This document shows, in pieces, positions 2,345 through 24,673 of a DNA stretch of 32,000 bases. A model generated the notes under the pieces. That model saw only the letters and a program-made list of their open reading frames with translations, was not told where the DNA came from and did no database searches. A program made the translations under genes and the position numbers. The number at the start of each line of letters is the position of its first letter. Position 1 is the stretch's first letter. Location of the stretch: assembly GCA_041661045.1 (NCBI GenBank), contig JBAZVE010000001.1, positions 570,001 through 602,000 on the forward strand, in the 5' to 3' direction. The DNA comes from Candidatus Saccharimonadota bacterium (GTDB taxonomy: Bacteria; Patescibacteriota; Gracilibacteria; UBA1369; 2-02-FULL-48-14).

Positions 2345-3244
2345 ATGTTTCGCACACATTCATTCAAGGCTTTCGATACCACAGTTGTGTTAGGGTTTAG
2401 TGCCGACGAAAGCGAAGCGCAAAAACTCATTCACTATTGTGAAAAAGAGGCGGAAAAGTTTGAGGCAAAGTTCAGTCGTTTTATCCCAACAAGTGAAGTG
2501 AGTCAGTTGAACACTGCCATGGGTGCAGAGCTTGAAGTGAGTGATGAAATGATCGAACTTGTCACTCAAGCAAAAAAAGCTTATGAACTGAGCAAGGGTC
2601 TCTTTGATCCCACGATTTTAAACGCCCTCAAGTTGATTGGTTACAATAAAAGTTTTAGTGTGGAGCCCGATGATAGCTCGGACGGCGAGCAAGATTTCAA
2701 TGAAAGGCCTCGACTGGAATCGCTGAAAATTGGCAAGAATACCTTGCAAGCCCCTGAAGGTTTTTGCCTTGATTTGGGCGGCATCGCAAAGGGCTATTGG
2801 GTCGATAAGATGGCAAAAGTCTTGGCGAAGTCCCATCAAAACTTTTGGATATCTGCAGGGGGGGACATGTATATGAAGGGGAAACAGGAGGATGGCAATC
2901 TTTGGGAAATAGGTGTACAAAATCCTAGGAGCTTGGAAGAAGATTTGCTCCGCTTGAAAATTCGGGAAGAAGGTCAGGGTATCGCCACTTCCGGTATCGC
3001 GAAAAGGCAGGGAATAAGAAACGGAATACCTTGGCATCACCTCATAGATCCGAGAACTGGTTTACCGACTCAAAACTCCATTCTGGCGGTTACTGTTCTC
3101 GCAAACTCCACCATGCAGGCGGATGTGATGGCGAAAGTCGTTCTTGTCCTGGGCGTTGAAAAGGGAATGGAATACTTGGCTGCGGACCCGAGCATAAAAG
3201 GTTTGATCATCGATCAGAATTTAAACATTCACTCCACATTATGA
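2345..3244 (+). CDS. apbE: ApbE-family FAD:protein FMN transferase
   Basis: Family motifs FDTTVVLGF, LGGIAKGYWVD and HHLIDPRTGLP are present. Start placed at ATG 2345 (MFRTHSF), because the upstream part of ORF 2129..3244 is a K/R-rich out-of-frame reading of the acidic-protein gene. The stop overlaps the next start (ATGA). Confidence 0.85.
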   Translation: MFRTHSFKAFDTTVVLGFSADESEAQKLIHYCEKEAEKFEAKFSRFIPTSEVSQLNTAMGAELEVSDEMIELVTQAKKAYELSKGLFDPTILNALKLIGYNKSFSVEPDDSSDGEQDFNERPRLESLKIGKNTLQAPEGFCLDLGGIAKGYWVDKMAKVLAKSHQNFWISAGGDMYMKGKQEDGNLWEIGVQNPRSLEEDLLRLKIREEGQGIATSGIAKRQGIRNGIPWHHLIDPRTGLPTQNSILAVTVLANSTMQADVMAKVVLVLGVEKGMEYLAADPSIKGLIIDQNLNIHSTL

Positions 3245-3972
3245 GCAGTTCACTCTACCAAAATTCATCACCTGTAGATACCGATTTAGACGGCCTCACC
3301 GATCAAGGCGAGCTTATGCTTTTTTTTACGGATCCCAATAATACTGATTCCGATGGGGATGGGTATTGGGATGGGACGGAGGTTTTGTATGAAACAAATC
3401 CTTTAGATGCCAATGATCCTGCTCAGGCGACAACGGAACTTCCGGATCAAGATATTGCATGGTCTTGGGTTCTTGCTCGAGTTTCTGGAATCACCAGTTA
3501 CTTGCTCCTTTTTGTTCTGATGATTTTAGGAGTGGGCATATCTTCGGGTTACATCTTTCGGCTGGTCGGTCCCATTGTTGCATGGCGCATTCACAGGGCA
3601 ACGGGGATCACGCTTATGGCTTTTGTATTCATCCACTTGGTGGCCTTGTTTCTCGATGACTTCATGAACTTTTCGATTCTCGATCTGTTCGTACCTTTTT
3701 ATTCTGAATTCAGCCCCACATACATGAGTTTGGGCATCATTGGTTTTTATCTTTTGGCGATCATCGTGCTGAGTTCCATCTTCATGATCGTCACCAAATA
3801 CAAGGCGTGGCGCTTTTTGCACTACTTAACTTTCCCCGTTTTTGTCGCACTCTTTATTCATGGCGTTTTTCTTGGTTCTGACACAGGCAGTTTAGCAATG
3901 CAAATCACATACTGGGTCACCGGTGTGCTCGTGGCGTTTTCCTTTGCATACCGCGTGGTGAAGGCTTTGTGA
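3241..3972 (+). CDS. ferric-reductase-domain (NOX/MsrQ-like) bis-heme membrane protein with N-terminal DxDxDG Ca-loop repeats
   Basis: 243 aa with about 5 TM helices. There are two histidine pairs in alternate helices: H118-x13-H132 (RIHRATGITLMAFVFIH) and H194-x12-H207 (HYLTFPVFVALFIH). This is the spacing of the heme ligands in NOX/FRE ferric-reductase domains. The N-terminus carries DTDLDGLTDQGE and DSDGDGYWDGTE loops. Confidence 0.7.
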   Translation: MSSSLYQNSSPVDTDLDGLTDQGELMLFFTDPNNTDSDGDGYWDGTEVLYETNPLDANDPAQATTELPDQDIAWSWVLARVSGITSYLLLFVLMILGVGISSGYIFRLVGPIVAWRIHRATGITLMAFVFIHLVALFLDDFMNFSILDLFVPFYSEFSPTYMSLGIIGFYLLAIIVLSSIFMIVTKYKAWRFLHYLTFPVFVALFIHGVFLGSDTGSLAMQITYWVTGVLVAFSFAYRVVKAL

Positions 3973-5730: not shown

Positions 5731-7101
5731 TTACAAACCCCGTAAGAAGTCCCACATTTCGGAGCCGGCTTCTTTGGGCCAAGTGTGGGGGTAGTATTCG
5801 CCGGAGTATTCGTCGTAATCGATGGTGTGTGGACACCAGAGAGTGGGGGCGTCTTCCAAGCAGTTTTGGTATTCCACGCAGTTTCCCCAGGTGGGTTCCA
5901 CGGGGGTGCTTGCCGCCGAACATTGGTTTTGGGCCAGGTAATCGTCGCGCGCGGTTTCGCCGGTGGAAAAAGGGGCTAAGTTGTCGGCGGGATTGTGCCA
6001 CTGCATCACGGCCACAGGGCCGCTGCAAGTTCCGGTGCTGCGCGCGCCGCCCAAAGTAACGACTCCGCGCAAAACATCCCCGCGCGCGCAAGCCAGGCTG
6101 TTGGTGAACCAGGCGCCCAGGGAGTGTCCCGCCGCATAGACTTCATCTGTGTTCACGCAATAAGTGCTGGTGAGCTCCTCATACATAAGATCAAAAAACT
6201 CAAAATCCCTCAGCTCATCCGCGCTGTCTCCGGAATCGGACCAAGTGAAACTGGAGCCGTTGCTGAGTCCCGCGGGGTAGACAAAAATAGCCTCGCCTTC
6301 GCCCGCTTTTTCCAAGCGGTAATAACTTCTTACTTGTGTGTTTGGGTTCGTTCGTCCGTGAAAAGCAAAGAGGAGAGGCAGGGGCTCGTCTTTGTTGTAA
6401 TTTTCCGGAATCACCACAATGGCAGACCGTTCCACTCCGTTTACCGTGAAGGAAGTGGGGGCCTCCGCCGGTGGAGTGCTTCCGCAGCCCGCGGAGCCAG
6501 CACTGCGTTCGGTGGACACCTCTTGTACCCCGCTAAAAATCCGGAGCATCTGGTGAATGGTGAAGGCCATTTCATCCCGCTGTGCTGATTGATCGGGGAA
6601 ATAACTGTATTTGGAAAAAATATTATTGTTGTGGACAAAGTCTATGTAAGGTTCAAACCAATCTTCGCCCTCTTCCGCTTCTTCGTGCATCAAGCCAAAG
6701 GCCTCAATTGCGATTTTAAAAGCCTCCACCGCATTCACTTCTTGTTCGGGGTGGTACAAGCCGTCCGGATAACCCTGTACAATTCCGAGTTCCTTGGCCC
6801 TGCAAACAAAAGGTGCAAACCATTCTTCCTGAACATCCGGGAAACAGCCGCCGGGGCCCTCGGAGGCATCCTCATCGAGCGCCGCAAAAACAATCTTTAA
6901 GAGTTCCGCTCGGTTGATGCTTGCTTCCGGTTTAAAGCTGCCGTCCGGATAGCCCTCGAGAATTCCTTGTTCCTGCAACAACTCGATGCTTTCTTGGTAC
7001 GGGTTTCCTTCAATGTCTGAAAAACTGGCTTCAACTGTGAATGAGAAAGCAAGGCTCAAAAGGAGCACACTGGCCGAGCACTTTAGAAGAAAGGATTTCA
7101 T
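5731..7101 (-). CDS. secreted SLH-domain protein with C-terminal PHB-depolymerase/feruloyl-esterase-family serine esterase
   Basis: Start taken at MKSFLLKCSASVLLLSLAFSF (signal peptide; ATG at 7101). Repeated SLH-like units are present (FSDIEGNPYQESIELLQEQGILEGYPDGSFKPEASINRAELLKIVF; FPDVQEEWFAPFVCRAKELGIVQGYPDGLYHPEQEVNAVEAFKIAI). The esterase part carries FHGRTN and the GHSLG nucleophile elbow. Confidence 0.8.
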   Translation of the reverse strand: MKSFLLKCSASVLLLSLAFSFTVEASFSDIEGNPYQESIELLQEQGILEGYPDGSFKPEASINRAELLKIVFAALDEDASEGPGGCFPDVQEEWFAPFVCRAKELGIVQGYPDGLYHPEQEVNAVEAFKIAIEAFGLMHEEAEEGEDWFEPYIDFVHNNNIFSKYSYFPDQSAQRDEMAFTIHQMLRIFSGVQEVSTERSAGSAGCGSTPPAEAPTSFTVNGVERSAIVVIPENYNKDEPLPLLFAFHGRTNPNTQVRSYYRLEKAGEGEAIFVYPAGLSNGSSFTWSDSGDSADELRDFEFFDLMYEELTSTYCVNTDEVYAAGHSLGAWFTNSLACARGDVLRGVVTLGGARSTGTCSGPVAVMQWHNPADNLAPFSTGETARDDYLAQNQCSAASTPVEPTWGNCVEYQNCLEDAPTLWCPHTIDYDEYSGEYYPHTWPKEAGSEMWDFLRGL

Positions 7102-7163
7102 GTCTTGAGTATACAGCAGTTCAGCTTGTGTTAAAGTGTCCACGATATATAAACTTCCATTCT

Positions 7164-16653: not shown

Positions 16654-17304
16654 TTACCCCAGCTTCAGTTTCTTCTTTTCTTTGTGAATCCAGAAGATTC
16701 CGCCGAAGAAGAGGAGGGTGAAGATGGTGAGGAAGAGGGGGTCGGTGAAGGCCGCGCCACTTCCAATATAGGCAAGGCTGAAGGCGCAGATAGCATTGGC
16801 GAGTATGGAAACGGGGACAAACACCCGTTTCTTTAGTTTAGAAAATCCCATGAAATAGGCGGCGTAGTCGCCGGGGAGTAAGGGGATGGAACAAAGGACA
16901 AAGTAGAATAAGACTGCTTTTTCTGATTCAATGAGTTCATCGTATTTGTGAAGCTCTTCTTCTTCCACAAATATTTTTAAAATGTTGCGACCAAAGCGAC
17001 GGCCTAAAAAGAAATTGATTTCGGTGGCCACAATGCGGGCGACCCAAGTGAGCAAGAAGGCGGGGAGCGTTCCATACACAAAACCGCCCGCCAGACCCAC
17101 CAGGGTGGAGTTGAGCGGCACCACAATCACTGTGATGGTGGTTATGATGAAGTAGAGCAGAAAACCCCAGACGCCCCATCCTTGGATAAGTTCCTGCAGG
17201 GCTTCACGGTCGGGGATTTCTTGGAAAACAAGATACGGCACTACAAAAGCGAAGAAGATAAAGGCCAAGAAAGCCACTAGGCTGACTTGAATCTTTTTAC
17301 TCAT
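16654..17304 (-). CDS. TVP38/TMEM64 (DedA/VTT-domain) family membrane protein
   Basis: 216 aa polytopic membrane protein. The pattern VVPLNSTLVGLAGGFVYGTLPAFLLTWVARIVATEINFFLGRRFGRNIL and LPGDYAAYFMGFSKLK is typical of this family. Confidence 0.8.
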   Translation of the reverse strand: MSKKIQVSLVAFLAFIFFAFVVPYLVFQEIPDREALQELIQGWGVWGFLLYFIITTITVIVVPLNSTLVGLAGGFVYGTLPAFLLTWVARIVATEINFFLGRRFGRNILKIFVEEEELHKYDELIESEKAVLFYFVLCSIPLLPGDYAAYFMGFSKLKKRVFVPVSILANAICAFSLAYIGSGAAFTDPLFLTIFTLLFFGGIFWIHKEKKKLKLG

Positions 17305-17707
17305 TTATAGACCCCGTAGGGTTGGGCTGCGTGTTATCAGGCCCGTTTGCGTCCTCTTTGGGTTGGTCGATTTGAGCGTCATCAAGATCACCGTCATTGC
17401 CTCCTTGCATGATTTGTGCAGTTATCACATCGTCGGCGGAATCCAGTGGATCCATCTTGTTTGCTAATTCTGTTCCATCGGGAGCTCCTCCGCCGTCACT
17501 GTCCTTCTCTTTTGGATCGGTGCCCAAATCCGCCTCAAGGGCATCCGTCAAACCGTCTCCATCTGTGTCCACGGATTGGACTTTACCCCAACGACCCTCC
17601 AAGAAGTCTGCGTCACTTAGGGCAAAGGCGCCAAGACCTAAAACTAAAACACCGGCGAGCATCAAGAGTTGAGGGTTTTTCATGGGATTTTTTAAAGATT
17701 TCTTCAT
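17297..17707 (-). CDS. secreted protein with thrombospondin-type-3/EF-hand-like DxDxDG repeats
   Basis: Start preferred at MKKSLKNPMKNPQLLMLAGVLVLGLGAFA (ATG 17707; ATG 17683 is also possible). The longer form from 17770 would overlap the divergent promoter. Loops DTDGDGLTDALE and DSDGGGAPDGTE are present. 8 nt overlap with the downstream gene. Confidence 0.65.
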   Translation of the reverse strand: MKKSLKNPMKNPQLLMLAGVLVLGLGAFALSDADFLEGRWGKVQSVDTDGDGLTDALEADLGTDPKEKDSDGGGAPDGTELANKMDPLDSADDVITAQIMQGGNDGDLDDAQIDQPKEDANGPDNTQPNPTGSINE

Positions 17708-17761
17708 GGGTTCTTTGTACCCCTTTCCCGGCGGCTTTTCAATGGTGAGTTTTTGGAAATA

Positions 17762-17789
17762 TTGACTCAATAATTTCGAGTGTTATGAT
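17762..17789 (+). promoter_or_regulatory. sigma70-like promoter for the 17811 gene
   Basis: TTGACT (17762-17767), a 16 nt spacer, then TATGAT (17784-17789), about 21 nt upstream of ATG 17811. Confidence 0.4.
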
Positions 17790-17810: not shown

Positions 17811-18443
17811 ATGAAAAATTCTCCTCGTGAAATAGGGCTCGCAAGCGTTTTGGCACTGGGTTTAACGGCTTCGGATGCGCGTGCGGATGAGGGGAATGGA
17901 TTTGTCCAGTGTTTTGATGGGTTGAGGAAAGATGGGTATCCACTGAGCCGACTTTCAAATTTATGTGACCCTTGCGATAAGAAGGAAGAAAAATCGATTG
18001 GCAACGCCATTGATGTTATTAGGGGAAGAGACCTTTCTCCTCTCCTTTTGAGCATGTGTGGAGGAGACGAGGCTTGTAGACAGTCTCATGAAGAGATCCA
18101 GCCTCAAGTAGTAAGAGAACTCCAAAGGGCTCAAGTTTTTTGTCCTGAAGCACCGATACAATCCATTGATGGAGAGCCGTTGTCTACGCTTGCGCCGGTT
18201 TCCCCAAATGCAGATCATCCCGGGCAAATTGTAGTTTCCCCTGTGGTGATTGAGGATTTGGATGCACTGGCGCTTGCGTTGTTTAAGCAAGGGACAGCTT
18301 GGGTCTTTGAAGAACAGGAGTCTCAGGATTCACTTACACCCACGGCTCCTTCGAAACCTGGTCGAGAAAACCGCACCCCGTATTTTTTAAGGCGACAGAC
18401 AGTTCTGGCGAGTGTGGAGGGACCTGATGTTCAAAAATGGTGA
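17811..18443 (+). CDS. secreted hypothetical protein (210 aa)
   Basis: Signal-peptide-like MKNSPREIGLASVLALGLTASDARA. Cys-containing with no recognised domain. The last codon and stop (TGG TGA) lie inside repeat copy R1. Confidence 0.6.
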   Translation: MKNSPREIGLASVLALGLTASDARADEGNGFVQCFDGLRKDGYPLSRLSNLCDPCDKKEEKSIGNAIDVIRGRDLSPLLLSMCGGDEACRQSHEEIQPQVVRELQRAQVFCPEAPIQSIDGEPLSTLAPVSPNADHPGQIVVSPVVIEDLDALALALFKQGTAWVFEEQESQDSLTPTAPSKPGRENRTPYFLRRQTVLASVEGPDVQKW

Positions 18444-18572
18444 TCGCGGCAGGAGGACGCTCACTTCGTTCGCTAGACGGTCGCTAAAGCTCCCTTACGA
18501 ACCTTTTACGGTTCGACCGCTTCTGACGAAGCACACCATTCCACTGGTGGGCAAGCCACCATCGAAATGGTG
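18438..18572 (-). repeat. direct repeat R1 (~135 bp), ending (minus-strand sense) in a copy of the tRNA-Arg 3' end
   Basis: Differs from 22288-22423 by only one 1-nt indel and one C/T substitution. 18438-18455 (tggtgatcgcggcaggag) matches the tRNA 3' end at 22419-22436 (tggtggtcgcggcaggag) at 17 of 18 positions. Confidence 0.9.
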
Positions 18573-18622
18573 TCCAGCTACGGAAAGGTTACTTTCTCAT
18601 TACCCTCCGTGCAACACTGAAA

Positions 18623-18646
18623 AGGCCCACAGAGTTTCAGGGGCCT
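18623..18646 (-). terminator. possible intrinsic terminator of the 1098 aa gene
   Basis: Minus strand reads AGGCCC, a 12 nt loop, GGGCCT, then TTTC, starting about 40 nt downstream of the stop at 18687. The stem is 6 bp and the U-tract is short. Confidence 0.35.
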
Positions 18647-18686
18647 AGCAGTTTGAAATATTGGATCTTAAAGGGGAAGTAGGCAC

Positions 18687-21600
18687 TTATGAGTCCAGCT
18701 TTAAAAGCGTTTTAATCTCTTGAAGTAGTCCGAGCTCGTCGGTCGTACTGTCGCCAGTTAGGCAGCCCTCCGCCAATTCTTTGAATTGGGGGCGCTCTTT
18801 CTCTGATGAGAGCCTGTAGGCAGTCAGCCAAAGAGCTTTGATAAAGTCCTTGAAAAGTTCCTTTTCACTATCCTCTTGAAGGGCAAGTGTTTTGTAGTGA
18901 CCTAGCATAATGCGAGTCATGGCTTTGAGCATATTTACCTTGTCCTCAAAGAGGATTCCAGTTTTGAAGAAACGTTCTATGAAGTTCAAAATTACCCCGT
19001 AAAAACTCGAAACAGTTGAGCCTGGAAAGGTGATTTCATTGAGCAGGTGATACATCCGTATCGAAATAGTGAAGGTCACCCCAGTGGGAGTTTTAAATTC
19101 AAGGGAAGGAAGCTGTTTCCGTTCAATTTTCTCTAAATCGTCGAGAGCAATGTAAAACAGGTCTGCACCGTTATAAGGAATGAATTTATAAAGAAGCTCG
19201 GCTACCCCTCCTTTGATTAACGCAAACTGCTTTTCATCAATGTACTTTTCCTCCAGCGCTTCTTCAAAGATCGCGAAAGTGTTGGAAGTTGCGATGCCTT
19301 CGTTCTCGAGAGCTATGGAAAGTTGAGCGTCGTCGGTAATGAATGTAATCCCATCTCTTTCAGCGATCCTTACGCTGTTTATAAGCCATCTTGGGAAAAG
19401 CTCTTCGATGCCTTTCACATTGAACACCCCACTGGTAATGTCGTCGTCGTAGAGTAAGACGCTCTCTGAGTTTGCATTGATGAACTGCCATAGTCTGCGA
19501 AGGGCTGGATCTTCTTCCGAAAGAAGGTCGTTTTGTACCTGTTGAAAAAGTTCACGGTGAATGACGAGAGTCTTATTGAACATGATTAAAAGACCCAGCT
19601 GGTTGCTTTTGGAAAGATTGATCAGCGCATTGTAATCCATCACTACCAAGTTTTTTGCCAGGAAGGATTTCCTTTGTTTTGGACTGCGTGGACAGTCGTG
19701 GTAGTCAATCGTAAAAGTGGTATCACCGCTCGCTGCCCCAACCACAAGAGCCTTTGGGTAGCTCTTCCCGAAGTACCTTTGGAGCCAATAGGTAGTGAGC
19801 TTTTTTTCTTGGTAGAGCTTCTTTCCCTTTTCGTAAAATTCCTTTTGTCTTTTGAATATATCTAAAGCTTCTTCACTGAGTTGATCGTTTGCATCCAGGA
19901 CTCTAACTGGTTTCATAACCGTTACATACTTATTCAACTCCATCATATTTTTAACAAGACGATCGGTTTCCTCTGTAGAGCCATACCTCATTGCCAGAGC
20001 CATGTACTGAGAGAGTATTTGTGGCAGCACTTCCTTATCTTCTTCAAAAATTCTTTTTGCCTCTTCTATAGTGGCAATCGCCTGGTTTTTTTCATCAGCC
20101 AAGGCATATGCAGTGCTTAGGTTGAGCCAGTAGTTGGGGTCTCCTGCTTCCACGGCGTAGGCCTTGAGTTCTTTCAGTACCTTGATTGCCTGCTGTGGTG
20201 CGCCGCTCTGTAAGAACTTGTGAGCAATATAAAATTTTTCTCGATAATCCATGTCATTGTAAGATTCCCATTGCATCAAAGAGTTGTAAGCCTCATCAAA
20301 GAGCCGCTCATTTAACTTTTTGTGAAATACAGCAACCCGAAGTTGTTGGAGTTGATTTTCACCCAAGTCTTCAAGAGTGATGCTTTTAAGTAGGGAGTCG
20401 CTTTTTTTCCCTAGCCACTCAAGGCAGATAACGAGATCTACCTTCATGTTGTTCACAAGACGAGGGCCCTGTCCTTCTGACTTTGCCAACTCAATCGCTT
20501 CCTCTATTTCTTTGGCGGCCATGGCAACTTTGCTGCCATTTTTAAGGAAAGGAATTGGGGTAGGTTTTTCACGATCTACATCTTCCTTTTGAGCAACGAC
20601 TAGGAGTGCACGAGCATGTGAGTATCTAACTTGGGAGGACTGTGGAAACACCTCTTTTAGTTCTGTAGAAAGAACCAATGCATCTGTGCTTTCATCAAAA
20701 ATCAGAAGCGAGTCGATCAACCCCGCAGCGAGGAACTCGTCATCATGAGAAAGTTTTTTAAGCTCATCCAGATGGTCAAATACAAACAGCTTCATCTCAT
20801 CAAGCTTTTGAGCTCTCAAGAAGGCTTGAAGTTTTAACCCCTGAAGCTCTGCAGATTGATCTTTGCCCGCCATTAACGCGGTAATACGCTTCTCAGCCTC
20901 TTTGAATGTCTCTTTGGTTGCCACATTCAGCAGCGCTTTCACCAAGTTAATTTGGGCATTTTTCTGCTCAGGGTCAACCTCAAGGGCCTTTCTAAACCAC
21001 TGCACGGCTTTATCAAAGTCTCCACCAGCAGAAGGGGATCTGTTGTAACATGCTCCTAAATTATTATAAGCACGCGCCAGGTCAGGATCTTCGGGACTTG
21101 TCTTCTCCAATCCTGTTATGAGGATGTGAAGTTTCTTTTTTGCCTCCTCAACATCTCTTTGAAGTAAGCCCTGAACCTCTCGGAAGATTCGCTCCTTCCC
21201 TTTCAAGACATCAAATTGAGAGAGGAGCAGCTCATGCGAGGCGAGCCCAACGGCTTTGATGTCATGGAGCTCACTTTGTGTTTCAAGGCTTTCCTCTAAG
21301 ATCTGATCTTGCTTATGGAGGAGCTCAAAGTTCGTGCCTTTGAAAAATTCCCTCATTAAGTGTTCGTCCTCAACGACAAGGCTGCTTAAGTTTTCAACAT
21401 CCCAAATCTCTGGCAAAGGCAGTCCGATTCCCTTTGCATACTTTCGCACTTCGTCCTTACTCGTTGGAGATGCGGTACACGACAAACAAAAAATGATTTC
21501 GGCAGGCTTACCGTCTATGTGCGTTTGATTGAAGTAACGATTTTTTATACCATCCAGTTCTTTCTTGAGTTCCGCAGTTGAATTAGATTTCCACCGTTTG

Positions 21601-21983
21601 CATTGAAAAAGGACAAACCCTCCTTCTTTTCTTGATATTACATCACGGTTTTTATCCCCAGGCCCTCCATACTTGAGAGGGTTGGGGTATTTACCGACGC
21701 GGCTTACAAGTCCAAGAATTAAATCTTCAAAACGATCTGCACTGAGGCCGTTCAGAGGGAGTGATCCTTCAATCATCACAGAGGGCCTTGACTCCTGCTG
21801 ACCCCCAAAAGTGACTCCAAGAGCTTTTGATAACTTGTCTAAAGTTTTTGAGGTAGGCTGATTACGCCCTTGCTCGATTTTGAAGAGGGTGTTAAGGCTC
21901 ACCTCTGACTTCTCTGCTAGTTGTTTTTGCGTCAGTCCGCGGTTCTTTCTAGCCTCCGCGATTTCTTGTCCGATGTTTCTCAT
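18687..21983 (-). CDS. 1098 aa multidomain protein: XRE-type HTH + Mrr-like restriction-endonuclease (PD-(D/E)xK) domain + TPR/helical repeats + PIN-like domain
   Basis: Domain calls are by eye.
- HTH: aa 1-58, GLTQKQLAEKSEVSLNTLFKIEQGRNQ.
- Mrr_cat-like: aa ~83-215, FEDLILGLV..GGPGDKNRDVISRKEGGFVLFQCKRW..IIFCLSC..EIWDVENLSSLV (QCKRW at nt 21591-21605).
- TPR-like: for example ARAYNNLGACYNRSPSAGGDFDKAVQWFRKALEVDPEQ and NYWLNLSTAYALADEKNQAIATIEEAKRIF.
- PIN-like: aa ~778-905, LVVMDYNALINL..LLYDDD..ITFITDDAQLSIALENEGI (nt ~19269-19652).
No Walker A motif was seen. It is certainly a CDS; the confidence value refers to the domain interpretation. Confidence 0.6.
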   Translation of the reverse strand: MRNIGQEIAEARKNRGLTQKQLAEKSEVSLNTLFKIEQGRNQPTSKTLDKLSKALGVTFGGQQESRPSVMIEGSLPLNGLSADRFEDLILGLVSRVGKYPNPLKYGGPGDKNRDVISRKEGGFVLFQCKRWKSNSTAELKKELDGIKNRYFNQTHIDGKPAEIIFCLSCTASPTSKDEVRKYAKGIGLPLPEIWDVENLSSLVVEDEHLMREFFKGTNFELLHKQDQILEESLETQSELHDIKAVGLASHELLLSQFDVLKGKERIFREVQGLLQRDVEEAKKKLHILITGLEKTSPEDPDLARAYNNLGACYNRSPSAGGDFDKAVQWFRKALEVDPEQKNAQINLVKALLNVATKETFKEAEKRITALMAGKDQSAELQGLKLQAFLRAQKLDEMKLFVFDHLDELKKLSHDDEFLAAGLIDSLLIFDESTDALVLSTELKEVFPQSSQVRYSHARALLVVAQKEDVDREKPTPIPFLKNGSKVAMAAKEIEEAIELAKSEGQGPRLVNNMKVDLVICLEWLGKKSDSLLKSITLEDLGENQLQQLRVAVFHKKLNERLFDEAYNSLMQWESYNDMDYREKFYIAHKFLQSGAPQQAIKVLKELKAYAVEAGDPNYWLNLSTAYALADEKNQAIATIEEAKRIFEEDKEVLPQILSQYMALAMRYGSTEETDRLVKNMMELNKYVTVMKPVRVLDANDQLSEEALDIFKRQKEFYEKGKKLYQEKKLTTYWLQRYFGKSYPKALVVGAASGDTTFTIDYHDCPRSPKQRKSFLAKNLVVMDYNALINLSKSNQLGLLIMFNKTLVIHRELFQQVQNDLLSEEDPALRRLWQFINANSESVLLYDDDITSGVFNVKGIEELFPRWLINSVRIAERDGITFITDDAQLSIALENEGIATSNTFAIFEEALEEKYIDEKQFALIKGGVAELLYKFIPYNGADLFYIALDDLEKIERKQLPSLEFKTPTGVTFTISIRMYHLLNEITFPGSTVSSFYGVILNFIERFFKTGILFEDKVNMLKAMTRIMLGHYKTLALQEDSEKELFKDFIKALWLTAYRLSSEKERPQFKELAEGCLTGDSTTDELGLLQEIKTLLKLDS

Positions 21984-22005
21984 AGAAGAATTAAAGAGTG
22001 CCCCC

Positions 22006-22035
22006 AGTATATCATGTAGCTTGTAGTCCCGTCAA
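22006..22035 (-). promoter_or_regulatory. sigma70-like promoter for the 1098 aa gene
   Basis: Minus strand reads TTGACG (22035-22030), an 18 nt spacer, then TATACT (22011-22006), about 22 nt upstream of ATG 21983. Confidence 0.4.
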
Positions 22036-22077
22036 GGCTAGTGGTATAAAAAGAGCTACTAAATTGAACCCAACAGG

Positions 22078-22269
22078 TTAAACATCAACCTTTTCAACTG
22101 TGTTTATCAGTCTATTCCTTGCAGCAGTCGCCATACTTACTACACTTTTGCCCTCAAACTCGAAGAAGGTCTCATGCTCAAATTTTCCTTGCATCCACTT
22201 GATAGTGAGGTAAGCCAACTCATCTTTCTTTTTCTGCTTTAGTGCGAAGGTAAACAAGGCTCTTGACAA
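22078..22269 (-). CDS. possible small ORF (63 aa from TTG, or 38 aa from internal ATG), unverified
   Basis: It is the only other ORF inside the repeat-bounded cassette, on the same strand and upstream of the 1098 aa gene. It has a TTG start, no recognisable motif and no obvious RBS. Confidence 0.2.
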   Translation of the reverse strand: MSRALFTFALKQKKKDELAYLTIKWMQGKFEHETFFEFEGKSVVSMATAARNRLINTVEKVDV

Positions 22270-22287
22270 AGAGCCAAACAGTATTGT

Positions 22288-22423
22288 TGGTGATCGCCGG
22301 CAGGAGGACGCTCACTTCGTTCGCTAGACGGTCGCTAAAGCTCCCTTACGAACCTTTTACGGTTCGACCGCTTCTGACGAAGCACACCATTTCACTGGTG
22401 GGCAAGCCACCATCGAAATGGTG
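22288..22423 (-). repeat. direct repeat R2 (~136 bp), immediately 3' of tRNA-Arg and overlapping its CACCA end
   Basis: Near-identical to 18438-18572. 22288-22306 (tggtgatcgccggcaggag) is a second degenerate copy of the tRNA 3' end. The proximal end shares tggtg (22419-22423) with the tRNA. Confidence 0.9.
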
Positions 22424-22495
22424 GTCGCGGCAGGAGTCGAACCTGCGACCCTCAGCTCCGCAAGCTGATGCTCTATCCAACTGAGCTACGCGACC
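22419..22495 (-). tRNA. tRNA-Arg (anticodon GCG), CCA encoded
   Basis: Hand-folded cloverleaf from the reverse complement: GGTCGCG-TA-GCTC-AGTTGGATA-GAGC-A-TCAGC-TTGCGGA-GCTGA-GGGTC-GCAGG-TTCGACT-CCTGC-CGCGACC-A-CCA. All four stems are fully Watson-Crick paired. 77 nt. Confidence 0.9.
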
Positions 22496-22555: not shown

Positions 22556-24673
22556 CTAGTTTTGGAAGCGGGCGGGTTTTAGGGACCAGCTGCTGTCCAG
22601 GCAGTCCACGCAGCCCAAATCCTCCAAAAGAGGGTAGAAGCTGTTGTAAGGAGTGCTCTGTCCAATCTGGATTTCACTGATGTCCCATCCCTCAGCTTTG
22701 CCCACGGTTGCGTAGGCGAGCGCATAAAGCACTTGTGCGGGGTTCCACTCAGCTCCGGAAAGGGTGAAGCTTTCGGGGATTTCTTCGCCGTTCCAGCTTC
22801 CGATCCAAGTCTCCAAGTCTTCGAGGTCGATTGCACCCGCTGTGTTTGCACTGCCGTCTGCAGACCAAGGCCCGATCATCCATTCCAAGGAAACAGAGCT
22901 TGTGCTGTTGTAACCTTCCGCCAAGGCGTAGAAGGACTCGGTGAGGGTATAGAAATCTTCTCCGTCATATGCCCAGTCCGGGGGTCCTGATCGCCAGCTG
23001 TTGAGGAGCCAAAGCGCTAGGTTTTGGCGCTCTTCGGCACTTAAAGATTCAGAGTCTGTTGAGGTGAACAAGGAAACCAGTTCGTCGCTATCCACAAAGT
23101 TGATCTTGCTGTCGTTGGTGCTTTTTTCAATCAAAAATTCCAAAGAATCCTTGATTTTAGCGTAGTTGCTCGCAATGGTGCTGGTTGAATTGATTTGGCT
23201 GCTGGGCAGTTCCGGAGTTTCGGGATATTGATAAGCCCATTGAGTGGGGCTGATGCCGGTTTTTGCGTACACCCATTTGCTCACCACACTTGTATTGAGC
23301 ACATGTGGCCCGGTATTTTCCAGTGATTCCAGTACCGTTTCAACGGAGGTGGCGCCTTTTTCCAGGTCCAAAATTCCAATGTCCATACCGGGGATTCCAT
23401 CATTCATTCGTAGCGTGTTGTTCAGCCAAAAAATACTCGTATCGGTTTCGTTGGTGGGGTCCAGTTTTGCGAGGATGGCATCTCGGCTACTCTCGTAGTC
23501 CGCTTGTGAAAGACTGGCTCCGTGATCTGAGAATCCAAAGCCCAAAACTCGACTGGGAAGGAGTTCATGAATGGCGTCGCTGCCCCCGCTTCGTTCCATT
23601 AAAAAGCCTTCAAACAACCCCACGCCACTGACCAATTCGACTGTGCCGAAGGCGTTTAGCACCGCTTCAATTCCTCCGCCACTTTCATCCACGCAACCCC
23701 CGTAAACGGGGTCTTTTTCGCAACGGACCCAAGAGGAGATGGCATCAAAGGCTTCTTGATAGCTGTAGGTTTCGCCAAGATCTTTTTGTGGACGATTCAA
23801 ATATGTGGGTTCGTGGTGACCGTGGTAGCCGAATTCAACCCAACCGTTGTCCGAAAGGTCTTCCAAATAATCCACAAGTCCCGTTTCGGAATTGCGCTCA
23901 GAGACGGTTTGCGCGTCGGCTCCTTGAAATTGGATGGTCCATGTGAAGTCTGAATCGGGATAGGAAGGCATGATGTCCTCCAAGTAGCCTCCAATGTTCC
24001 AATAACGGTCTTCGGAGAGTTCGTGATTGATGTGATCTTCGGTGTGCGCAAAGGCAAAAAGATAGGTGATATCTGCGGGGGATCCGGAAGTGTCCAAAGA
24101 AGGCCCTTCGGGGAAATCCGTTGCTACATAGGAGTCCATATTGACCATCAGCTGAGCCATTTCACCCCGAGTCACCGAATGAGCGATGTCCGTGTTTACT
24201 TTTTCCAAAATTCCTCGCGGAGCCGCCCACCAATAGTAAGGCTCGTACCATATGGAATAACAGGATTCACAGATCACCACGCCATCGGCTTCGAGCACAA
24301 TTTTTAAAGCTTCCGCCAGATTGATGAGGTTTCCGGGTTTGAAGGAGCCGTCATCATAACCATCCACAATGCCAAGGGTTTTAGCCTTGCAAATGTAGGG
24401 GGCGTACCAAGCGGCCGTTACATCATTGAAACAGAATGTTCCCTCCGACTGGCCGGGATATTTTGCCTCAATTAAAATTTTAACAAACTCCGCTCGGTTG
24501 ATGGTGCTGTCCGGGCGATAAGTCCCGTCGGCATAACCCTCCACCACTCCACTTGCATAGAGGGAGTCGATGGCCGCCTCATTCGTGTGGCCACTCGTAT
24601 CGGTGAACGCCAGTGCGGTGGGAACCGCCAGTAGACTGCAAAGGCTGACGAGAGCCAGGAGGGCTTTTTTCAT
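22556..24673 (-). CDS. secreted SLH-domain protein with large C-terminal domain of unknown function
   Basis: 705 aa with signal peptide MKKALLALVSLCSLLAVPTALA. SLH-like units are present (FTDTSGHTNEAAIDSLYASGVVEGYADGTYRPDSTINRAEFVKILIEA; FNDVTAAWYAPYICKAKTLGIVDGYDDGSFKPGNLINLAEALKIVLEA). The remainder is unassigned and could be a carbohydrate-active fold, but that is not supported by motifs I can name. Confidence 0.75.
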   Translation of the reverse strand: MKKALLALVSLCSLLAVPTALAFTDTSGHTNEAAIDSLYASGVVEGYADGTYRPDSTINRAEFVKILIEAKYPGQSEGTFCFNDVTAAWYAPYICKAKTLGIVDGYDDGSFKPGNLINLAEALKIVLEADGVVICESCYSIWYEPYYWWAAPRGILEKVNTDIAHSVTRGEMAQLMVNMDSYVATDFPEGPSLDTSGSPADITYLFAFAHTEDHINHELSEDRYWNIGGYLEDIMPSYPDSDFTWTIQFQGADAQTVSERNSETGLVDYLEDLSDNGWVEFGYHGHHEPTYLNRPQKDLGETYSYQEAFDAISSWVRCEKDPVYGGCVDESGGGIEAVLNAFGTVELVSGVGLFEGFLMERSGGSDAIHELLPSRVLGFGFSDHGASLSQADYESSRDAILAKLDPTNETDTSIFWLNNTLRMNDGIPGMDIGILDLEKGATSVETVLESLENTGPHVLNTSVVSKWVYAKTGISPTQWAYQYPETPELPSSQINSTSTIASNYAKIKDSLEFLIEKSTNDSKINFVDSDELVSLFTSTDSESLSAEERQNLALWLLNSWRSGPPDWAYDGEDFYTLTESFYALAEGYNSTSSVSLEWMIGPWSADGSANTAGAIDLEDLETWIGSWNGEEIPESFTLSGAEWNPAQVLYALAYATVGKAEGWDISEIQIGQSTPYNSFYPLLEDLGCVDCLDSSWSLKPARFQN

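Follow-up and report, generated by a model that had tools for sequence, protein, structure and literature searches.

Among described systems, those that appear to be the closest analogues of the locus analysed here are the cis-mobilizable elements (CIMEs) with tandem accretion of the ICESt1/ICESt3 family of Streptococcus, for which a three-step scheme, with CIME decay and then accretion into attR, is documented (PMC5704250), and the ssrA islands of Dehalococcoides, 15 tandem examples of which have no integration module and have been interpreted as possible CIMEs (PMC3146451). The locus is a 3.85-kb segment in which a single gene (the cargo) lies between two long direct repeats (R1 and R2, or R for either) at a tRNA-Arg gene, within a stretch of 32,000 nucleotides from contig JBAZVE010000001.1 of a Candidatus Saccharimonadota bacterium; this whole stretch is referred to as the window, and coordinates are those of the window unless another locus is named. 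The locus looks like the footprint of a site-specific insertion that has no recombinase of its own. On balance, R is probably an att-type module derived from integration at the T-loop/3' end of the tRNA gene, with the cargo having been joined by recombination at R to give a CIME-like islet that would depend on functions supplied in trans.

Like the CIMEs, the locus has no integration or transfer genes, stands in tandem with another att-bounded segment and would be expected to depend on an integrase from another element; at the sequence level only, it is also alike in carrying near-intact tRNA-end copies at both boundaries (attL/attR). It differs in having no genes derived from integrative and conjugative or integrative and mobilizable elements and no known cognate integrase, in being tiny, with one gene, and in having a 135-bp composite repeat (a trailer hairpin, a segment X and a tRNA end) instead of a short core. 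A further difference is that, to our knowledge, the host, a member of the Candidate Phyla Radiation (CPR), has no conjugation system.

The Dehalococcoides ssrA islands share with the locus multiple direct repeats of a small-RNA 3' end downstream of the gene, an insertion point in the T-loop (a geometry described for tRNA/tmRNA-targeting elements), the tandem arrangement and variability of the region between strains; their repeats, however, are of 20 bp, they extend over many kb and they mostly carry a serine recombinase, whereas here the repeat is of 135 bp and no recombinase is seen (PMC3146451). In classical tRNA islands and prophages, too, the 3' part of the tRNA is targeted, the tRNA is reconstituted, the old 3' end is displaced to the far boundary and the island is absent from relatives; here, in contrast with them, there is no integrase gene by the tRNA, the composition is typical and the repeat runs 113 nt past the tRNA-derived block. 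A sublocation scheme for tRNA-integrated islands and prophages with a tyrosine integrase was reportedly set out by Williams in 2002. Four points set the locus apart from its analogues: the repeat is composite, it also stands alone in distant species, the unit is only one gene in size, and the host is a CPR bacterium.

CPR bacteria (Patescibacteria) have very small genomes, and their acquisition of genes is poorly understood; the locus would represent a concrete route, i.e. the docking of a one-gene, defence-like cassette at a tRNA gene without its own recombinase. The cassette itself is unremarkable, and it is the conserved, patchily distributed R module that is of interest, being a short non-coding module whose conservation greatly exceeds that of neutral sites and which is found again, at the same tRNA, in species with saturated synonymous sites. 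If the module is a trans-mobilised mini-element or landing pad, it would mark hot spots of variable genes and point to the integrase that serves them, and, were it a true miniature element, a cassette system would be operating at a tRNA gene in the ultra-small genomes of CPR bacteria, in which few mobile elements are otherwise seen. Should the module instead be a structured RNA, a new tRNA-linked RNA would have been found; if it is neither, the locus would be an ordinary decayed tRNA islet.

Anatomy of the repeats at tRNA-Arg

The tRNA-Arg(GCG) gene is intact and, ARAGORN and Rfam being in agreement, is the sole tRNA gene in the window. Read on its strand (minus), the order is tRNA, R2, a 63-aa open reading frame (ORF), the 1098-aa cargo gene (21983 to 18687), a weak hairpin and R1 (Table 1), as the original prediction had it. 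R2 begins at the CACCA of the tRNA, and these last 5 nt are the only overlap between repeat and tRNA. Each repeat is made up of CACCA, X (113 nt) and a displaced tRNA 3' end (O, 17-18 nt) that spans C59/T60 of the T-loop to the CCA, and both repeats are direct and in the orientation of the tRNA. On the tRNA strand, the R2 part reads tRNA...GCGAC(CACCA)-X-TCCTGCCGGCGAT(CACCA) / ACAATACTG...cargo, and the R1 part cargo...GCTGGA / (CACCA)-X-TCCTGCCGCGAT(CACCA) / TTTTTGAAC..., the last tract, downstream of O in R1, being similar to the native trailer in one relative (L021, see below). The 17-18-mer of the tRNA 3' end is therefore present three times at the locus, as TCCTGCCGCGAYCACCA at 22419-22435 and 18438-18454 (0.01 expected by chance) and, with one G extra, at 22288-22305; this threefold occurrence had been claimed beforehand, and the refinement made here is that R shares only CACCA with the tRNA gene itself.

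Global alignment of R1 and R2 gives 98.5% identity, with one A/G change (C/T on the plus strand) and one 1-nt G indel, precisely the two differences that had been predicted; the sites that separate the copies are a single-nucleotide polymorphism (22392 T, 18541 C) and the indel at 22297-22298. A repeat search of the window returned the same pair as a 126-nt direct repeat (18447-18572 and 22298-22423) of 99% identity at a spacing of 3851. No further tRNA remnant was found upstream of R1 beyond CACCA, the alignment score there being matched by 678 of 2000 shuffles, and the 12 nt that precede this CACCA are unrelated to the tRNA end.

The near-identity of R1 and R2, together with the lack of a tRNA remnant upstream of R1, points to duplication of R as a whole by recombination, and not to independent scars. 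Likewise, because the two repeats are near-identical while the 12 nt before the CACCA of R1 are unlike the tRNA end, the cargo does not appear simply to lie between two equivalent scars. Recombination of two R-bearing molecules would fit better than two independent integrations, the most economical path being recombination between a resident R and a circle bearing cargo and R; the outcome can equally be described as a tandem dimer, (X-O)x2, whose O/X junction has received the cargo, with CACCA on either side. As to the original prediction of an integration footprint, the anatomy, the absence of the cassette from relatives and the single-R states described below are in its favour, but a reading of the three 18-mers as serial scars of equal rank is not supported, since R acts as one unit that is found alone in other species and the right-hand cargo junction keeps just CACCA.

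Distribution and conservation of the repeat module

The source contig has its best relatives in Peribacteria/Peregrinibacteria. When species-representative genomes were scanned with a tRNA-internal 29-mer, 17 loci were obtained, among which blastn was used to assess synteny. Eight relatives (L011, L013, L014, L019, L020, L021, L026 and L027) have conserved the order IMPase, tRNA-Arg, variable gap, rpe-rpiB-prs, with a gap of 6 nt to ~4 kb that is occupied by unrelated ordinary genes, none a recombinase. The cargo is absent from all eight, i.e. the arrangement is not universally conserved, and the search for an empty site proposed with the original prediction did find cargo-free sites, of two kinds: those without R (L027-L029, L021 and L013) and those with a single R-like module (L020 and L026).

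In the closest relative (L027, equal to L028/L029; Rpe 77% identical), a VTT gene lies 6 nt past the tRNA, with neither R nor cargo. L013 has the first 22-35 nt of X only, which constitute the hairpin, followed by csaA and with no displaced tRNA end. In L026 there is a diverged X-like insert of 154 nt with an exact 21-nt repeat of the host's own tRNA end on both sides (1849-1869 and 2024-2044 of that locus), the enclosed segment being too small to encode anything. L020 has X at 99/113 (6177-6309 of that locus, minus strand), a decayed tRNA end, a 45-nt module common to L026 and a second decayed end, again with no cargo. On a tree of Rpe, a single gene and hence a weak phylogeny, the three R carriers fall in three different clades, each beside non-carriers. 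A profile search (nhmmer) found no other copy of R in the window or in 24 related loci; within these sequences R occurs only at tRNA-Arg and is not seen away from this tRNA. No terminal inverted repeats were found in R.

At a diagnostic position of the acceptor, the displaced end has the nucleotide of the host tRNA, i.e. G in the window and A in both L020 and L026; over 21 nt it equals the host tRNA in L026. Integration at the T-loop/T-stem is suggested because the block of identity begins there, and independent integrations at the T-loop/3' end would fit both the tracking of the host by O and the conservation of X. The O of the window, a GAT variant, equals the functional tRNA-Arg end of L011, the window tRNA itself carrying GAC. 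The L011 segment (3785-3801, tRNA sense) is identical to the displaced end at 18438-18454 of the window (…GCGATCACCA, which gives a G2-U71 wobble), the GAC of the window tRNA being fully paired.

The 87.6% identity of X between the window and L020 (99 of 113 positions) is similar to that of second codon positions. By comparison, between these two the neighbouring genes prs, rpiB and rpe are 43% identical at 4-fold sites, which are saturated here as they are between the window and every relative (0.32-0.43 identity). The first hairpin of the module is kept in L020 with one compensatory and two wobble-compatible changes, is kept in a shifted register in L026 and is partly kept in L013. The fold z-score is -3.55, and the eight changes that separate L020 from the window within the first 80 nt all lie in loops or bulges or preserve pairing, one compensatory pair being included. 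At the end of X, directly before the displaced tRNA end (22306-22340, minus strand), are three AGCG motifs spaced by 11-13 nt; there are 4-5 AGCG per R module, with those in L020 and L026 in the same region, and the enrichment was equalled in 78, 13 and 24 of 20000 shuffles for the three modules (window, L020 and L026). The AGCG repeats look like iterated protein-binding sites, as would be expected beside a recombination core. The identity of X in the face of saturated synonymous sites, the patchy distribution on the Rpe tree and the AGCG enrichment in all three modules together argue that X is not a neutral leftover and would fit a mobile or constrained element.

Two other identities for X were considered and rejected. 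A protein-coding function is ruled out by the 1-nt indel in L020, which breaks the frame; for a decayed second tRNA or a piece of tmRNA, ARAGORN sees one tRNA only, and in the Rfam scan nothing but the tRNA passes, all other matches being far below the gathering scores.

Origin of the islet

In the reading that we favour, site-specific integration at the T-loop/3' end of tRNA-Arg(GCG) would have left R, with the integrating element supplying the new tRNA end and the old end being displaced as O. X would then be an arm of the element that comprises the hairpin past the CCA of the tRNA and the AGCG set and carries protein-binding sites. A resident single R, in the state seen in L020 and L026, would subsequently have recombined with a circular DNA bearing one R and the single cargo gene, either by means of an integrase in trans acting on O (accretion into attR) or by RecA-mediated Campbell-type insertion. 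The product, tRNA-R-cargo-R, would be a 3.85-kb, recombinase-less, CIME-like islet that could loop out again via R x R recombination. Of this scheme, we infer the existence of a circular intermediate, the enzyme involved, the direction that events took and any present-day mobility.

The earlier claim that the unit encodes no recombinase proved correct and can be extended, in that Pfam, PADLOC and NCBIfam searches (cassette ORFs and all major window ORFs) found none in the unit or in the rest of the 32-kb window, and the gaps of the relatives hold none either; nor are there transfer genes in the unit, which has the one cargo gene only.

Several observations weigh against the favoured reading. 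Neither the window nor the gaps of the relatives yielded an integrase of matching specificity, and no intact parent element with X was found in viral, genome or metagenome collections. The latter were scanned for exact patterns, i.e. two 23-28-mers of X as well as the Y module and the 3' half of the tRNA; the viral collection was empty for all patterns and the genome and metagenome collections were empty for the X patterns, the first 26-mer having missed L020 through one substitution. The GC content (0.442), GC3 (0.466) and codon distance (0.82) of the cargo are all within the range of the window genes and the sliding GC profile is just slightly lower over it, so the compositional check that had been proposed does not mark the cargo as foreign; this composition implies a donor of similar composition or an old event. 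The hairpin in L013, without a displaced end, indicates that at least the hairpin may be native tRNA trailer, and the host-tracking of O rests on just one to four positions. In the contexts examined, the homologues of the cargo have neither tRNA adjacency nor flanking direct repeats. Finally, random decay of large elements does not readily account for an identical, flush O-X-O arrangement in three lineages, which suggests that the short module may itself be the moving unit.

That last point is central to an alternative which overlaps with the favoured reading and makes the stronger claim that R itself is mobile, namely that R is a miniature non-autonomous integrative element of ~130-175 bp (att arm plus core), a derivative of a tRNA-Arg-targeting element comparable to miniature inverted-repeat transposable elements, that an integrase in trans inserts repeatedly and independently across deeply diverged Peribacteria, with tandem copies trapping or exchanging single genes. 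The flush tRNA end-X-tRNA end in three lineages, none of which is the closest relative of another, the perfect 21-nt repeat around just 154 nt in L026, the conservation of X against saturated synonymous sites, the AGCG repeats common to the modules, and the finding that removal of the cargo and one CACCA leaves a perfect tandem dimer, (X-O)x2, are all consistent with this proposal. We nevertheless consider it unlikely, both in its identification of R as a miniature element and in its repeated independent insertion, since there are three carriers only, none with copies beyond this tRNA, no integrase could be identified, mechanics disfavour a circle of ~130 bp, L013 has the hairpin alone, and the cargo is without terminal inverted repeats, the 5-nt CACCA 'duplication' possibly being simple microhomology. 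Somewhat less probable again is that X is a functional element of the tRNA-Arg locus, e.g. a structured, trailer-derived RNA ending in ...ACCA, that is vertically inherited with losses, in which case no integrase was ever involved, the cargo arrived by homologous recombination and the repeat around it came from foreign DNA of a relative carrying a homologous copy. The high conservation of X, substitutions that avoid or compensate predicted helices, the fold z-score, the presence of the hairpin in L013, the terminator-like hairpin after R2 and the indel in L020 that excludes protein coding can all be cited for a structured RNA. There is, however, no Rfam family, the comparison comprises four sequences, in which just one pair is truly compensatory, and L026 does not retain helix 2; vertical inheritance would also require at least 3 or 4 independent losses and leaves unexplained why O follows the tRNA of each host, and duplication of a tRNA 3' end is a textbook outcome of integration.

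Two further alternatives concern, respectively, the assembly and the class of recombination site. All four R junctions also occur in an independent Logan assembly of SRR18595301, in contigs L006 (tRNA side), L008 (cargo, 3785 bp) and L007 (210-aa-gene side); the ends of these contigs pass the R boundaries or variants by k-1 = 30 nt, and therefore all four junctions exist in the reads. A chromosome with one R plus a 3,851-bp circle yields the same assembly graph as the integrated form, however, and the Logan contigs, which end at the repeat, fit both, with the two variants of R, ~95 nt apart, being unlinked at k=31. The chromosome might then carry tRNA, single R and flank, with cargo plus R as a separate circle of 3,851 bp or present in part of the population, and there is a precedent of sorts in five complete genomes of Ca. 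Peribacter riflensis, each with one direct-repeat region at which an alternative assembly path would drop ~3 kb (PMC4736985). We regard such a layout as improbable and favour the integrated form, because the R1 and R2 variants are each linked to their own flank, as for two physical copies, and the source is a single 1.32-Mb contig; the segment, moreover, has no replication gene. The cassettes of Vibrio superintegrons have a similar repeat length and a one-gene-per-repeat layout, a resemblance that raises the possibility of R as an integron-type attC and of the unit as a gene cassette in an integrase-less attC cluster. This we consider very improbable and reject, since the ends of R do not pair on either strand and there are no GTTRRRY or RYYYAAC cores at the four boundaries; further, no integron integrase is present in the window and the cargo has its own promoter-like site. 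As a separate observation, the Ca. Peribacter riflensis repeat (from a different Peribacteria lineage, of 58% GC) may represent the same kind of repeat-bounded segment.

Cargo gene and surrounding features

The cargo is read as a defence- or conflict-type protein, and not as a mobility gene, on the basis of its predicted domains (Table 1) and of its homologues and their contexts, described below. Residues 3-59 match an XRE-type HTH (E=8e-16), residues ~80-200 match Mrr_cat below the threshold (20.2 bits, with the cutoff at 21), a region in which D114 and Q127-x-K129, of the PD-(D/E)xK type, are invariant across the family, and the middle portion is a TPR array. For the last 338 residues, an AlphaFold model (pLDDT 75.8) has PIN/VapC proteins as top Foldseek matches (target-normalised TM 0.6-0.67 and probability 1.0, with E-values of just 5e-3 to 0.2), and D783 and D884/D885 of this PIN-like domain are invariant; the region has no Pfam match in the window cargo, with PF20698 being only 'faint' in homologues. 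The full-length fold search was dominated by TPR proteins and was uninformative.

Table 1. Positions of features at the tRNA-Arg locus
Feature	Coordinates	Strand	Basis
tRNA-Arg, anticodon GCG, CCA encoded; target gene	22419-22495	-	ARAGORN; Rfam RF00005, 71.7 bits
R2, tRNA-proximal repeat, 136 nt: CACCA common to tRNA, X, displaced tRNA 3' end	22288-22423	-	nhmmer E=1.7e-42
Hairpin 1, 16-bp stem-loop: CACCA of tRNA plus first 35 nt of X	22384-22423	-	fold and comparison
X of R2	22306-22418		
O(R2), tRNA 3'-end copy with extra G (TCCTGCCGGCGATCACCA); preceded by three AGCG motifs 11-13 nt apart	22288-22305	-	sequence
R1, distal repeat, 135 nt; cargo DNA before it, no tRNA remnant beyond CACCA	18438-18572	-	alignment, nhmmer
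X of R1	18455-18567		
O(R1), displaced tRNA 3' end TCCTGCCGCGATCACCA	18438-18454	-	identical to functional tRNA-Arg 3' end of L011
Cargo gene, 1098 aa: XRE-type HTH, Mrr-like PD-(D/E)xK nuclease, TPR array, C-terminal PIN-like domain plus helical tail	18687-21983	-	profiles, alignment, structure model
Terminator-like hairpin and T-rich tail, directly after R2	22258-22275	-	consensus match only
63-aa ORF, TTG start	22078-22269	-	ORF list; family-match and similarity searches negative
Promoter-like site TTGACG-18-TATACT, TG-extended, upstream of cargo gene	22006-22035	-	consensus match only
Weak hairpin GGCCC...GGGCC then TTTT, past cargo stop codon	18620-18646	-	read from sequence; terminator scan did not report it
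Convergent 210-aa gene bordering the unit	17811-18443	+	last codons TGG TGA within O(R1)

The cargo family is rare, a word-indexed search returning 11 full-length homologues at ~30% identity, and a search of 1.84 billion proteins gave 65 representatives of its C-terminal domain at E<=1e-30. In four of five homologue contexts (L001 9288-13603, L005 9270-13579, L031 1619-5943 and L033 1507-5825) AbiEii is the first gene of the operon and the homologue the second, with the AbiEii stop overlapping the start of the homologue; for this pairing of AbiEii with a ~1200-aa HTH-Mrr-TPR-PIN protein, no PADLOC system model matched beyond the HTH domain. The fifth homologue (P0007, no HTH; L004 4199-13066) is encoded together with a terminase large subunit and a ParB-methyltransferase on a phage-like contig; here the partner upstream is a different protein, of 317 aa, and not AbiEii. 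The window cargo is a solo copy and is without the ~105-aa N-terminal extension; tblastn with three upstream partners as queries against the window found no AbiEii, and neither an AbiEii remnant nor the N-terminal extension of the homologues was found upstream of the cargo. AbiE-type two-gene modules, as a comparison for the cargo only, are alike in that AbiEi-type partners also have an N-terminal HTH and in the pairing of the homologues with AbiEii; they differ in that the window copy is without AbiEii and in that the partner is a nuclease-TPR-PIN protein of 1100-1200 aa, not canonical AbiEi. Searches of phage and plasmid records with the cargo and R gave nothing beyond matches to tRNA and a weak HTH-Mrr match in Ralstonia megaplasmids, and no relatives of the cargo were found in viral contigs.

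The 63-aa ORF between R2 and the cargo gene has no family match or homologue, is unlike both AbiEii and the N-terminal extension of the cargo homologues, and is probably not a gene. On the other side of the unit, the TGA stop of the convergent 210-aa gene (18441-18443) and the preceding TGG lie inside the displaced tRNA 3' end, and before any insertion this gene would have overlapped the ACCA end of the tRNA.

The opposite side of the tRNA is also variable, with a 705-aa SLH-domain protein (22556-24673) between IMPase and tRNA in the window and a MazE-PIN (VapBC-like) pair at this place in the closest relative (L027 612-1246, L028 3412-3995); the nearest homologues of the 705-aa protein are without the SLH domain and in unrelated contexts. 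For the VTT neighbour only two homologues were found, one of which is again from the L027 species. TSP3 repeats are present in two proteins of the window (17297-17770 and 3241-3972) and SLH domains in several (e.g. 5731-7143 and 22556-24673), a content that fits the surface-protein-rich make-up of the group.

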